From positions 1 to 64,000 of the forward strand of contig NZ_MWQY01000013.1 of assembly GCF_002087085.1 (NCBI RefSeq): 64,000 nt of DNA, in the 5' to 3' direction. Made by a program: the position numbers. This document shows, piece after piece, positions 24,001 to 27,000 of the stretch (positions are counted from its first letter, which is position 1; the number at the start of each line of letters is the position of its first letter).

Positions 24001-27000
24001 ATATCGGCAAGCAGCTGGTCCACAACGGCCGCGGCTGCCGCTCCCATGGGACGCGGGGCCGGACTTATCTGGTTCAGGGAAGGAGCGAGCTGGTCTCCTG
24101 AGACTACGCTGCGCTGGAGCATCAGCCTGGGAAGGGGCGGGGAGCGGAGGCTTATACTTGGAGCAGCCAGGCCTGTGCGCCGGGCTTCCTCTCCTATTTT
24201 AACCGGCTGCACGCTGATATTCTGACCGGGATTGAAAACAAAGGTACCGGTCTGGATCAGCTTGGTATCGAAAATGCCGTAATAGTAGGGGATCCCCGGA
24301 ATGGGATAATCGGTAAATGTGGTCTGATCGCTTTCGATCATGCCGATGCTGCTGGCACCCAGCAGCCCGTCCACGTCGGCGATGGGGTCGGTATGCCGGT
24401 AGATTGTCAGGCTCCGGTCTTTCCTGTCTGCCTGGAAGCGAAGCTGAATTCCCTCTCCCCGGACTTCCGCTTTCAGCCCGGTGACCGAGGCGGCAAGCTC
24501 TTTTTCGGAGACCACCGGGAGAGCCGATACGGGGTATACCGTCTTGTTTCGAAAGGGAATAAAGAGTTCGAAGAGTCCTCCGTCGGGATCCTCCAGGAGA
24601 ACGGCATAATAATATTCCTGCCTGTCTCCGGGATAATCGACAAAGGTGGAAATCCCGGGAGGAACGGCAGCTATCTCCTTCGCATCGCTGAAATTCCCTT
24701 CCTCTATCTCGGTGCTGTGGCGGAAAATATGATAGGTTCCCAGAACGTCCGGGGAATCCCTCCAGGTAAGGCGGATTCCTTCGCCTGCTTCCACGGCCCG
24801 CAGGCTGGATGGAAAAGGGGAGAAGATGGTTCCGGACTGTGAGTACAGCGGAAGGCTGTACAGGAAGAGACCCATAACTGCAATTGTCAGGGGAAATCGA
24901 AAACCTTTCATATGCCTACCAGTATTATCGGAAAACGCTGGTATAATCCATAGTCCTTTCCCTCTTCTGTAGGTCCATCAGTGTATATCTGCTTGCCCAG
25001 AAAGGCTTTTTCCCTGTACACTGACTTCAATGTTTGTTGCCGTTGCCTGTGATTTTGCCAATGACGATCATTCCCGGGAGGTAATCAAGCTGCTTGGCTG
25101 GTACGGATTCGAAAAGGTCCAGGAAGGAGTGTGGGAGACCGCCTCGATTCCGGAGAACACCCTGGCTCGTTTAAAACGCGATATCGATCGCAACTGCGAT
25201 TCCTTCGATTCCATCCGGTTTTACCAGTTCCCCATGGAAGAGACCATGGTCATTACCTCGTTAAAGGGAAAACGCTGGCGGCGTATTATTCTTGAATAGC
25301 TGATTGAAAAGGAGAACATGAACATGCTGAGTGAACTTGACGATGCAATACAGTCCCTGAACACCGAAATCCTCGAAATCTGGAGGGGTCTTTGACCCGG
25401 AACGGATAGAACACCAGATTCGTGAAAAAGAGGCGGTGACGGCGGAACCGGATTTCTGGAACGACCGTGAGGGAGCGGAAAAGCTCATGTCGGAGATTAC
25501 CGCACTGAAACGCTCCTACGAGCCCTGGAAGGATCTCAAAGGGAAGATCGAAGATCTTTCGGAGCTGTACAGCCTGGCTCTCGAGGAGGGAGATGACTCT
25601 GTCGAAACTGAGCTGAAGTCGGGGATCGATGAACTCGGCGCCGAGCTTCAACAGCTGCGGCTGATGGACATGCTCTCCGACGAGTTCGACCGTAATCCGG
25701 TCTTCCTGACCATCCACTCCGGGGCCGGCGGAACCGAAGCCTGCGACTGGGTCAGTATGCTGTACCGGATGTACAGCCGCTGGATAGAACGGCGGGGGTT
25801 CAAGTCGGAGATTCTGGATCTGCAGGAGGCCGAGGGGGGCATAAAATCGGTAACCCTTCAGGTAAAGGGAGATTATGCCCACGGCTATCTCAAATGTGAA
25901 ACCGGCATTCACCGGCTGGTACGGATCTCACCTTTCGACTCCTCGAGCCGAAGGCATACCTCCTTTGCTTCGGTCTATGTCTCTCCGGTTATCGAGGATG
26001 ATATCGAGGTTGATATCAGGCCCGAAGACCTGAGGGTCGATACCTATCGTGCCCAGGGGGCCGGAGGTCAGCACGTAAACAAGACGGATTCAGCAGTGCG
26101 AATGACCCACCTGGCTACCGGAATTGTCGTGCAGTGTCAGAACGAACGGAGCCAGCACAAAAACCGGGACATGGCCATGAAGATGCTGAAATCCCGGTTG
26201 TACGAATACTACAAGGCTGAGAAAGAGGCGGAAAAGGAGAAGAGTGCCCAGGAAAAAAAGGATATCTCCTGGGGTAACCAGATCCGGTCCTATGTTTTTC
26301 ATCCCTACAACATGGTCAAGGACCACAGAACGAAGCACGAAACAGGGAATGTCCAGGCTGTCATGGACGGAGATCTGGATCCCTTCATCGAAAGTTATCT
26401 CAATTTTATGTGGAAACAGAAGAAGGAATGAACGGGGTCCTCATCGTCGACGATCTGGAGTTTATGCGAACCGCGCTGCGGGAGATACTCGATAAAGCAG
26501 GAATTCCTGTTGTCGGCGAGGCCTGTAACGGCATCCAGGGGGTGGAGTTCTACTCCCGGCTGAATCCCGAGGTTGTCCTTCTTGATATAACCATGCCGGA
26601 GATGGACGGTCTCGCTGCCCTCAGGAGAATCCGAAAGGATGACCCTTCCGCCCGGATTATCATGTGCTCAGCCCTGGGGCAGGAGTCCACTATTCTCAAG
26701 GCTATCCGCTACGGGGCCAGGGATTTTGTTGTCAAACCCTTCAAGCCTGAACGGATCGTCTCCGCCGTCAAAAAGGCACTGCCCGGATAAAAATGAAACG
26801 AGGAGCACTGTCCGGAGGGATTTTCCCGGTACTGCTTAATCTCCTGCTCCTGATTCCGCAGTATGCAGGTGCTGCCGAGGATCCCCGGGAGGAGTACAGG
26901 ATCGCCCTTACCGGTTTTACCGCCCTCGGTCTGCCCCGGGAACATGCGTATCTGGCCCAGGCCCTTCCGCGCCTTATGCTGCATACCCTTGCGGGACTGG

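Follow-up and report, generated by a model that had tools for sequence, protein, structure and literature searches.

The gene at the centre of this analysis, which we call cas2L, lies at 25030..25299 on the forward strand of the window, that is, the whole 64,000-nucleotide stretch of DNA that was analysed. It runs from an ATG to a TAG stop and encodes 89 aa, a divergent Cas2-family protein that is not CRISPR-associated. On its upstream side and on the reverse strand lies up415 (23664..24911), an open reading frame of 415 aa whose only family hit is a weak YbgF/TPR-like match in its C-terminal part. TIGR02795 scores 26 bits against up415, which is under its cut-off, and no Pfam family matched. 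Downstream, all on the forward strand, follow prfB (25324..26431), which encodes release factor 2 (RF2), a CheY-like receiver gene (26428..26790; Response_reg, 110 bits), a PEGA-domain gene (26793..28160) and an open reading frame (28188..29048) that we take to be FtsY-like from its GVNGVGKTT motif. The last of these ends the conserved block that we examined.

The cas2L protein is matched by Pfam CRISPR_Cas2 (PF09827) with 35.8 bits (cut-off 23.8) and, as a marginal pass, by TIGR01573 with 25.3 bits (cut-off 24.5). This bears out the survey's finding that the open reading frame encodes a Cas2-family protein. Twelve Cas2 models of PADLOC match it as well. An hhalign comparison of the cas2L family profile with 11 canonical Cas2 proteins gives a probability of 99.1% (E 1.2e-18) over 79 columns. 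Relatives of cas2L sometimes fall under Pfam: of seven that were scanned (P0029, P0033, P0034, P0044, P0045, P0053 and P0062), five gave a hit of at most 29 bits or none. Matches in the ESM Atlas are the family's own clusters only, automatically named Cas2 and commonest in Spirochaetota; the Atlas holds no structure record for the family. An Rfam scan of 24600-25600 at E<=1 matched nothing, and our literature searches, whose coverage stops short of subscription journals, found no paper on the family.

The family is small and stands apart. A search of 1.84 billion representatives with its profile yields no more than 66 proteins at E<=1e-3, and the list tails off into canonical Cas2 at about 36-39 bits. 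In a tree, a branch of length 0.87 with an SH-aLRT support of 99 parts 114 cas2L members from 11 canonical Cas2 proteins. Two weak profile hits outside the class, G426 and G449, with E values of about 5e-6 to 9e-6, were not counted as members; a tblastn search with the cas2L protein of the source genome gave no match at either locus (L126 and L127). The best explanation of these sequence comparisons is a distinct Cas2 clade that, among the genomes searched, is restricted to Spirochaetota.

Within the class Spirochaetia, 178 of 401 genomes contain exactly one match to the profile (E 1e-28 to 1e-48). Among high-quality genomes the gene is present in 120 of 306, and 78 of 156 genera carry it. That cas2L is single-copy, as had been claimed, is thus confirmed for every carrier. 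The further claim that the gene is fixed throughout Spirochaetia was overstated, because whole families are without it (f12 0/38, f26 0/37 and f24 0/12). Where the gene is present it is constrained: dN/dS is 0.008-0.18 in 11 of 15 pairs, namely those with unsaturated dS, which supports strong purifying selection. The divergence of cas2L follows that of RF2 (Mantel r 0.79, with 0 of 999 permutations as high). Together with the single copy per genome, this agrees with the vertical inheritance proposed for the gene.

The neighbouring prfB carries a programmed +1 frameshift. Frame 0 starts at 25324 (an alternative ATG lies at 25318) and runs to the CTT at 25390-25392, which is followed by the UGA at 25393-25395. 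The +1 frame continues from 25394 to the stop at 26429-26431. The frameshift site, TGGAGGGGT CTT TGA C, occupies 25381-25396, with its Shine-Dalgarno-like element 3 nt upstream of the CTT, and reading through the shift joins the prfB N-terminus to the RF2 body (TIGR00020, 503 bits), as expected from the +1 frameshift that the survey had placed at 25390. The site TGGAGGNNNCTTTGA recurs in 109 of 109 loci, each with a Shine-Dalgarno-like AGGGGG and then CUU UGA C about 22 codons into the gene. Such a frameshift means autoregulated RF2 synthesis. Its site is textbook here, and there is nothing unusual about prfB itself.

The spacing between the two genes is short and operon-like. From the cas2L stop to the start of prfB there are 24 nt (ATG 25324) or 18 nt (ATG 25318), in line with the distance reported earlier. 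A Shine-Dalgarno sequence, AGGAG, at 25310..25314 on the forward strand lies 9 nt before ATG 25324 and fits that start; the 22 codons that then precede the shift are the mode of the family. GGAG-type sites are present in the cas2L-prfB gap of most loci. Nearly all loci have gaps between -11 and +47 nt; in 11 of the 109 listed, all in L014-L028, L095 and L104, the genes overlap by 8 or 11 nt. Junctions that are this tight, and sometimes overlapping, would also be consistent with a genuine coupling of function to RF2.

The two genes belong to a larger syntenic block, GH57-TPR gene-cas2L-prfB-cheY-PEGA-ftsY. Among loci with room on the respective side, an up415 homologue lies upstream of cas2L on the opposite strand in 62 of 74, and cheY lies downstream in 65 of 74. 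In the source genome, the ATG of the CheY-like gene overlaps the prfB stop (ATGA), and homologues of its product align from about residue 7-10 of the open reading frame that begins with the GTG at 26410. Metatranscriptome contigs on 24000-27000, from four runs in four studies, cover parts of up415, prfB and cheY, and none lies over cas2L or the cas2L-prfB junction.

What does the position before prfB mean? One reading makes cas2L a partner of RF2 or the ribosome, for example an RNase or regulator that acts on mRNA at termination, on stalled ribosomes or on prfB frameshifting; co-expression of the two genes would then be functional. In its favour, 109 of 109 loci whose downstream DNA is long enough have prfB after cas2L on the same strand, as the survey had found in a smaller sample; a 110th locus, L106, has only 64 nt downstream and is left out of this count. 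The short gaps and overlaps, and the correlated divergence of cas2L and RF2, point the same way. So does the Cas2 relative VapD, which the available part of one study describes as a ribosome-linked mRNA interferase (PMC6452270).

However, all seven genes of the block are syntenic (downstream of cas2L, ftsY is found in 64 of 64 loci with room and PEGA in 64 of 69), and therefore the adjacency of cas2L is not specific to prfB. Shared vertical descent would lead one to expect the correlation with RF2. Spirochaetota orthologues from outside the class have the same invariant residues, yet they lie beside prfB in 0 of 13 loci; their neighbours vary and include OmpA-like, TPR, GGDEF, DUF3047 and peptidase M3 genes. 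Moreover, 223 of the 401 Spirochaetia genomes do without cas2L. In 10 of 10 such genomes examined, prfB, its Shine-Dalgarno-like element and the CTTTGA are unchanged, and no remnant of cas2L was found upstream of prfB, even at E 10. We consider a partnership with RF2 or the ribosome unlikely, and the adjacency most likely reflects an old operon order that became frozen, and is no proof of a shared function.

The survey had proposed a domesticated Cas2 tied to the ribosome or to mRNA. Its first half stands, since the gene is single-copy, vertically inherited and outside cas loci. The tie to RF2, ribosome or mRNA is weakened by the synteny of the whole block, by the orthologues away from prfB and by the frameshift that persists in genomes without cas2L.

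The start of cas2L has a feature of its own. Of 101 distinct Spirochaetia loci, 76 have a promoter of the form TTGACA-N17-TACACT, with at least 9 of 12 consensus positions, that ends 5-11 nt before the cas2L ATG. Shuffled sequences give a mean of 2.5 such loci (maximum 8), and sliding the position gives 0-7 of 101. Only 6 of the 101 loci have a Shine-Dalgarno-like motif before cas2L. In the source genome, the predicted sigma70-type promoter lies at 24993..25022 on the forward strand (-35 TTGCCC at 24993-24998, an 18-nt spacer and -10 TACACT at 25017-25022). It leaves 7 nt between the -10 element and the ATG. Its match to the consensus is only 8 of 12, and the position of the element is conserved within the genus.

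Because the promoter abuts the ATG and a Shine-Dalgarno sequence is missing, the cas2L mRNA is predicted to be leaderless or near-leaderless. From these sequence patterns, cas2L would be a leaderless first cistron in Spirochaetia. The predicted leaderless start and the abutting promoter are new in this analysis. Some points weigh against this part of the reading. In Borrelia, 5' UTRs are commonly short, about 19% of them under 10 nt according to the available part of the source (PMC5314773). Starts that are abutted by a promoter are not rare in the window, where up to 4 of 50 long open reading frames have one. A conserved block further upstream, at 24922-24955, could hold another promoter, which would yield a leadered transcript. 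Scanning 24700-28400 for consensus promoters and terminators gave no more sites than shuffled sequence, at a threshold above 8/12 that misses the promoter abutting cas2L. A terminator-like hairpin at 25272-25284 was set aside as probably a by-product of the KRWRR codons (CGC TGG CGG CGT).

A promoter that touches the start codon is typical of some autoregulated repressors, for example lambda cI. In a second rival reading, the small cas2L protein would regulate its own operon by binding DNA or RNA, with the Cas2 fold serving as a dimeric binding module and not as an enzyme. Its predicted place as leaderless first cistron and its conserved basic residues (K49, R63, K81, R84 and R85) are compatible with such a role, and the best non-Cas2 structural match is the Cas2-like domain of the PaaX repressor (Z 7.4). 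But the orthologues outside the class have Shine-Dalgarno sites, no abutting promoter and unrelated neighbours, and therefore a conserved operon-specific operator is unlikely. In addition, the acidic invariants D8, D13, D51, D57 and D60 resemble a metal site more than a nucleic-acid-binding surface; judging from the topology and the list of predicted interface residues, D8, D13, D57 and D60 would cluster. Autoregulation thus appears improbable to us.

The structure prediction places the protein near Cas2. An AlphaFold2 model (pLDDT 93.3) has the elements E2-8, H12-24, E28-31, E34-37, H42-55, E61-69, E72-79 and E82-88. In a VIA structure search with this model, 13 of 13 chains with Z of at least 8 are Cas2 (Z 8.2-10.9), and the best Foldseek rows are nearly all Cas2, so the earlier statement about the best PDB matches holds for all chains at this level and for nearly all top Foldseek rows. 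The Cas2 core is kept: the ferredoxin-like fold, an Asp or Glu that ends strand 1, and the motifs YG, FE and D..R.Y. The acidic position at the end of strand 1 is D8 in the source genome and corresponds in the alignment to an invariant D8 in canonical Cas2. Of 114 distinct family members, 85 have D there and 27 have E; the other 2 have a different residue. Peculiar to cas2L are the invariant residues F2, D13, K49, D51, D57, Q66, P68, W83 and R85; the invariant residues are common to members inside and outside the class.

The protein is also predicted to form a Cas2-like homodimer. The prediction scores 0.59, against 0.00 for the best control. Of 30 proteins solved as pairs, 20 reach the score mark used, as does 1 of 23 solved as single chains. 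Three runs share at least 96% of the contacts, with pLDDT of at least 84. The predicted interface takes in residues 4, 6, 8, 49, 56-68 and 83, and many of the invariant residues peculiar to cas2L would fall inside it. The prediction may reflect memory of, or likeness to, solved Cas2 dimers.

Compared with canonical Cas2 (PF09827 / TIGR01573; PDB 1zpw, 4qr0, 2i0x and 6k2e), cas2L has the same fold, length and motifs and a predicted homodimer of the same kind, and it passes the cut-offs of the family models. In contrast to canonical Cas2, it is never beside cas1 or an array, its presence is unrelated to that of Cas1, and it is single-copy with a pattern of vertical descent in one phylum. It also sits on its own long branch, has extra invariant residues and heads the presumed prfB operon in Spirochaetia.

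A second comparison is BPSL1038 of Burkholderia pseudomallei, from a stand-alone Cas2/VapD-like nuclease subfamily (PMC10491678). In common with cas2L it has a conserved chromosomal gene outside CRISPR, the Cas2 fold and, as predicted for cas2L, a homodimer with paired Asp residues. We set the two apart by the published description, as far as it was available: BPSL1038 is undetectable as Cas2 by sequence and is marked by a D11(X20)SST motif and by an extra helix at its C-terminus (PMC10491678). In contrast, cas2L is matched by Cas2 models, has D8...E36-S37 (28 residues on), ends in beta strands and comes from another phylum.

The VapD toxins share the superfamily fold with cas2L. Their structures (e.g. 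PDB 6zi0 and 9kan) match the model at Z 6.8-6.9, lower than the Cas2 rows, and the accessible portion of the same VapD study treats Cas2 as part of the VapD interferase lineage (PMC6452270). One possibility is that cas2L is a VapD-like toxin or another defence component, as in abortive infection or a toxin-antitoxin pair. This is very improbable. There is no conserved small partner gene such as the antitoxins VapX or VapW: in Spirochaetia, cas2L lies between up415 and prfB, and elsewhere it has varied neighbours. The single copy, fixed chromosomal position, vertical descent and very low dN/dS are unlike mobile toxin-antitoxin or defence genes, and we saw no sign of mobility. Scans against Pfam, TIGRFAM and PADLOC gave no VapD family match, and PADLOC returned Cas2 models only, apart from one faint PDC-M10B row for one relative.

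The independence from CRISPR-Cas shows in the source genome and in the wider sample. In the source genome there are two Cas2 matches, cas2L and a second one (97 bits) that adjoins Cas1 on contig 11. There it belongs to a complete type I-C locus, cas3-cas5c-cas8c-cas7-cas4-cas1-cas2, with an array of 32-nt repeats. This cas locus thus lies on another contig than cas2L and has its own Cas2, as the survey's finding stated, and the neighbour of cas2L is prfB in every testable locus. Across the 401 Spirochaetia genomes, with Cas1 called at E<=1e-10, 63 have both Cas1 and cas2L, 115 have cas2L only, 83 have Cas1 only and 140 have neither. The presence of one is unrelated to that of the other (odds ratio 0.92; 35% against 37%). 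Furthermore, no Cas family occurs among 27 neighbours of the 13 loci outside the class. A role for cas2L in CRISPR adaptation in trans, with its product standing in as an extra Cas2 for a Cas1 encoded elsewhere, would fit the retained core motifs, the predicted dimer and the Cas1 found in 63 of 178 carriers, but it is close to refuted by the 115 carriers without Cas1, by the Cas2 within the I-C locus itself and by the long branch between the clade and canonical Cas2.

The reading that we prefer, with a probability of roughly 60%, is that cas2L represents a vertically inherited, non-CRISPR clade of Cas2 whose small product dimerizes as Cas2 does and probably cleaves or binds nucleic acids. The gene would have lost every link to CRISPR adaptation and been kept as a single-copy chromosomal gene. 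Its product would act alone, as a small metal-dependent nuclease or a nucleic-acid-binding dimer with a cellular, non-immune role; nuclease activity is suggested by family membership, although in E. coli the catalytic activity of Cas2 is dispensable for adaptation (compare PMC6452270). In Spirochaetia, cas2L would be the promoter-proximal cistron of the same-strand block cas2L-prfB-cheY-PEGA-ftsY. A TTGACA-N17-TACACT promoter ending about 6-7 nt before the ATG would produce a leaderless mRNA that is translated, and prfB, with its own Shine-Dalgarno sequence, would be read from the same transcript.

A more specific version is unlikely. Here cas2L would be an exapted Cas2 that has taken on a housekeeping function in spirochaete translation or in RNA quality control. 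Its product would cleave or bind RNA as a dimer and would be made from a leaderless first cistron, so that its synthesis reports the state of 70S or leaderless initiation; it would be translationally coupled to RF2 and act on mRNAs or ribosomes at termination. If true, such a core role in the cell would be a first for a Cas2 lineage.

Public records label the cas2L proteins "CRISPR-associated protein Cas2", and therefore CRISPR counts are inflated in spirochaete genomes that have no CRISPR system. One carrier, going by its NCBI record, is the cultivable and non-pathogenic Sediminispirochaeta smaragdinae. To our knowledge, Cas2 is universal in CRISPR adaptation, and there has never been agreement on what its conserved nuclease site is for. 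The cas2L lineage appears to have shed Cas1 and CRISPR and to have kept the catalytic-type residues of Cas2 across the phylum under very strong purifying selection. It would thus amount to a natural experiment that shows what a Cas2 dimer is capable of alone. The promoter at its ATG offers a testable, class-wide case of a predicted leaderless first cistron before the gene of an essential translation factor.

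The 89-codon ORF at 25030-25299 on the plus strand (start ATG, stop TAG), which we call cas2L, matches Pfam CRISPR_Cas2 with 35.8 bits (cut-off 23.8), NCBIfam TIGR01573 with 25.3 bits (cut-off 24.5) and twelve Cas2 models in PADLOC. The survey's finding of an 89-aa Cas2-family gene at this position is therefore borne out, and public records label such proteins "CRISPR-associated protein Cas2".

Alignment A1, which comprises the window protein and 24 relatives, matches A2, built from 11 canonical Cas2 proteins, in hhalign with a probability of 99.1% (E 1.2e-18, 79 columns). The canonical Cas2 invariants fall on D8, the YG and FE motifs and D60..R63.Y65 of cas2L. 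Nearly all of the best Foldseek matches are Cas2 (TM about 0.6-0.73, E from 1.1e-3, none at E<=1e-3). The VIA search, which is independent of Foldseek, gave 13 chains with Z of at least 8, all of them Cas2 (Z 8.2-10.9), with PaaX (Z 7.4) and ferredoxin-like folds of a generic kind ranking next. Among 1.84 billion representatives, no more than 66 proteins match the family profile at E<=1e-3. The low end of this list is made up of ordinary Cas2 proteins, which reach 65-84 bits on Pfam Cas2, against 0-29 bits for those family members that were scanned. A quick maximum-likelihood tree splits 114 distinct family members from the 11 canonical Cas2 proteins (SH-aLRT 99, branch length 0.87), the sole branch used from this tree, whose alignment is short and whose branches are long. 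cas2L is a true Cas2 homologue, yet it belongs to a separate clade. The gene is under strong constraint: of 15 close pairs, the 11 whose dS is unsaturated have dN/dS values of 0.008-0.18.

In the window, cas2L is followed by prfB on the plus strand. Frame 0 of prfB runs from ATGs at 25318 and 25324 to CTT TGA C at 25390, which is preceded by TGGAGGGGT. Once CTTT is read as a single step, the N-terminus is fused to the RF2 body (503 bits on TIGR00020); the start and frameshift site proposed by the survey thus hold. We take 25324 as the start, because a putative Shine-Dalgarno sequence, AGGAG (25310-25314, plus strand), lies 9 nt from it and because it leaves 22 codons ahead of the frameshift, the modal number among relatives. 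The gap from cas2L would then be 24 nt (18 nt to the earlier ATG). Behind prfB lies a CheY-like gene on the same strand, listed as an ORF from GTG 26410. Its start is likely ATG 26428, since the alignments with homologues do not begin before about residue 7-10 of the longer ORF. The ATGA at 26428-26431 overlaps the prfB stop, which suggests translational coupling of the two genes. Close behind, on the same strand, stand genes for a PEGA-domain protein and an FtsY-like protein. A terminator-like hairpin was flagged at 25272-25284 in the 3' end of cas2L. It is probably a by-product of codon content, because it lies over the codons for the invariant K-R-W-R-R motif, and AT-rich orthologues from outside the class encode KKWKR there with A-rich codons.

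The operon-like placement is conserved. We compared 110 loci, of which 80 are named and 30 anonymous; one of them is the window, and at least 13 duplicate one another. As the survey had claimed, prfB follows cas2L on the same strand, here in 109 of 110 loci; in the remaining one (L106) the sequence extends only 64 nt downstream. TGGAGG or TGGGGG-NNN-CTTTGA is present in all 109 prfB loci, with about 22 codons ahead of the shift. For the 92 loci with an in-frame ATG, the distance from the cas2L stop to the nearest prfB ATG is -11 to +47 nt, except in L084 (88 nt) and in L038, which is ambiguous; the other 17 start with GTG or TTG. In 11/109 loci, all among L014-L028, L095 and L104 and some of them duplicates, the cas2L and prfB frames share 8 or 11 nt. 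Neighbourhood conservation is not specific to prfB, because other genes are also kept. Among the 80 named loci, counting those with enough flank, we find prfB in 76/76, ftsY in 64/64, PEGA in 64/69, cheY in 65/74, GH57 in 47/64, and in 62/74 the divergent upstream gene up415 (415 aa; 23664..24911, minus strand, in the window).

Outside the class Spirochaetia the prfB link is missing. In a phylum sample of 301 genomes, 14 genomes of other classes have strong matches (E 1e-20 to 1e-26); no such match was found in the large families f69 (0/45), f74 (0/38) and f68 (0/17). We fetched 13 of the 14 loci. The encoded proteins have 28-42% identity with the window protein and form one clade (SH-aLRT 100). 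Members inside and outside the class share M1, F2, D/E8, D13, L22, Y25, G26, E36, S37, L45, L48, K49, D51, D57, D60, R63, Y65, Q66, P68, W83 and R85. prfB is near cas2L in 0/13 of these loci, and their 27 neighbouring proteins include no Cas protein. The neighbours include OmpA-like proteins, an O-antigen-ligase-like protein, DUF3047, peptidase M3 and DUF493. In two loci, both of family f85, a 7TMR-DISM GGDEF diguanylate cyclase follows directly on the same strand (L123:1628-3505, minus; L124:3752-5659, plus, overlapping cas2L). A large TPR protein (about 690 aa) lies divergently upstream in 4/13 loci (L120, L121, L124, L125); up415 of the window is likewise divergent and has a weak TPR/YbgF-like C-terminus. 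Judged from these sequences, the protein family is older than the prfB link, because orthologues that keep the same constrained residues do so without prfB.

Conversely, prfB is intact in 10 Spirochaetia genomes without cas2L, including four whose genus has carriers among its other members. The frameshift site is kept in 10/10, and no cas2L remnant was found upstream of prfB in these genomes, even at E 10. In L136 and L140 the up415 homologue is directly divergent from prfB. In L142 (G082:C1:3937321-3941286) the frame open across prfB spans 467-547 aa, which points to an extended N-terminus or to fusion with an ORF upstream. Pairwise identities of cas2L and RF2 are correlated across 95 loci (Mantel r 0.79, 0/999 permutations as high), which fits joint vertical descent and is equally expected of any two linked genes. 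With one copy per genome, this agrees with the vertical inheritance the survey had suggested. Given the adjacency on one side and the orthologues without prfB on the other, the survey's reading that cas2L is functionally linked to RF2 seems unlikely to us.

The survey's account lacks a second conserved feature, which is new: in Spirochaetia a near-consensus sigma70-type promoter sits ahead of the cas2L ATG, typically gggTTGACA-N17-TACACT-N6-7-ATG. With at least 9/12 hexamer matches required and the end of the -10 placed 3-11 nt ahead of the ATG, 76 of the 101 distinct loci pass, compared to a mean of 2.5 (max 8) for mononucleotide shuffles and 0-7 when the search is slid by -200 to +300 nt. 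TTGACA is perfect in 65 of the 76 and the spacer is 17 nt in 68; the -10 lies 5-11 nt from the ATG (mode 6-7). Thirteen more loci reach 8/12, including the window, where the candidate is TTGCCC-N18-TACACT-N7-ATG (plus strand), its position conserved across the genus. Only 6/101 loci have a Shine-Dalgarno-like motif. Transcription usually starts about 7 nt after the -10. From this spacing we predict that transcription should begin at or beside the A of the AUG, giving a leaderless mRNA with prfB as second cistron.

The arrangement is not exotic, because up to 4/50 long ORFs in the window have some candidate start likewise abutted by a promoter and because about 19% of mapped Borrelia 5' UTRs are shorter than 10 nt, according to PMC5314773. 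What stands out is its conservation at one gene across a class. A second conserved block (24922-24955; TTATCGGAAAA ... TAATCCATAG) in the 118-nt divergent intergenic region is invariant in six genomes of the genus. On its minus strand, GATAAT reads as a -10 at a distance of about 11 nt from the up415 ATG, and up415 may thus have a very short leader too. Read on the plus strand, TGGTATAAT (24939-24947) may serve as another cas2L promoter in the window's genome, one that would leave a leader. The loci outside the class differ at the cas2L start (GGAG-type Shine-Dalgarno 13/13, abutting promoter 0/13), and we consider it quite unlikely that cas2L is an autoregulator.

Non-CRISPR relatives exist. 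The Cas2/VapD superfamily has known members of this kind, VapD toxins being one case (PMC6452270), and BPSL1038 of Burkholderia is described in PMC10491678 as a stand-alone Cas2-like nuclease whose role is not known; both resemble cas2L in standing outside CRISPR. We found no report, among open-access papers and bioRxiv, of a phylum-wide vertically inherited Cas2 clade, of the prfB link or of the promoter arrangement. Despite the toxin precedent, we consider a toxin or defence component improbable for this constrained single-copy gene.

The distribution of cas2L is independent of CRISPR. The A1 profile matches 178 of 401 Spirochaetia genomes, exactly one copy each (E 1e-28 to 1e-48); it is present in 120 of 306 high-quality genomes and in 78 of 156 genera. 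Presence is mostly all-or-none per family (f2 11/11, f9 16/17, f29 8/8), and no match was found in f12 (0/38), f26 (0/37) and f24 (0/12), "absent" calls being limited by incomplete bins. Hence single copy stands and "throughout Spirochaetia" does not. Two genera are mixed: g106 (7/12 sampled genomes positive) and g66 (carriers include G232 and G318; G088, G181, G208 and G221 lack it). In a scan of genome contigs, 80/80 named records with cas2L were Spirochaetota; NCBI labels of carriers include Marispirochaeta, Sediminispirochaeta, Spirochaeta, Treponema and Gallitreponema. Cas1 (PF01867, E<=1e-10) is found in 146 of the same 401 genomes. Both genes occur in 63, cas2L only in 115, Cas1 only in 83 and neither in 140, an odds ratio of 0.92 that shows no visible association in a set including non-independent kin. 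With 115 of 178 carriers devoid of Cas1, the survey was right that cas2L is kept irrespective of CRISPR-Cas.

It was also right about a separate type I-C locus. A Pfam Cas2 search of the entire assembly gives two matches, cas2L and one of 97 bits, which lies on contig 11. There Cas3, Cas5c, Cas8c/Csd1, Cas7/Csd2, Cas4, Cas1c and a 96-aa Cas2 (78 bits on TIGR01573) precede a long array (L146:8544-11828) with the 32-nt repeat GTCGCGCCCCTCGCGGGCGCGTGGATTGAAAC; several ORFs of at least 90 aa listed across the array are artefacts. Adaptation in trans is very improbable, given this system's own Cas2 and the many carriers without Cas1.

We give a probability of roughly 0.6 to the reading that cas2L acts on its own in a cellular role, as a small metal-dependent nuclease or nucleic-acid-binding dimer. 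A Cas2-like homodimer is predicted with a score of 0.59 (best control 0.00), a mark reached by 20/30 proteins solved as pairs and 1/23 solved as single chains, although likeness to solved Cas2 dimers may account for the pass. Between runs, at least 96% of contacts are the same, with pLDDT of at least 84. The predicted interface contains D8, K49, D57, D60, R63, Y65, Q66, P68 and W83. As far as topology goes, D8, D13, D57 and D60 would lie at one sheet end and could make up an enlarged, dimer-spanning metal site. cas2L is a clean example of a Cas2 lineage kept for a purpose other than adaptation.
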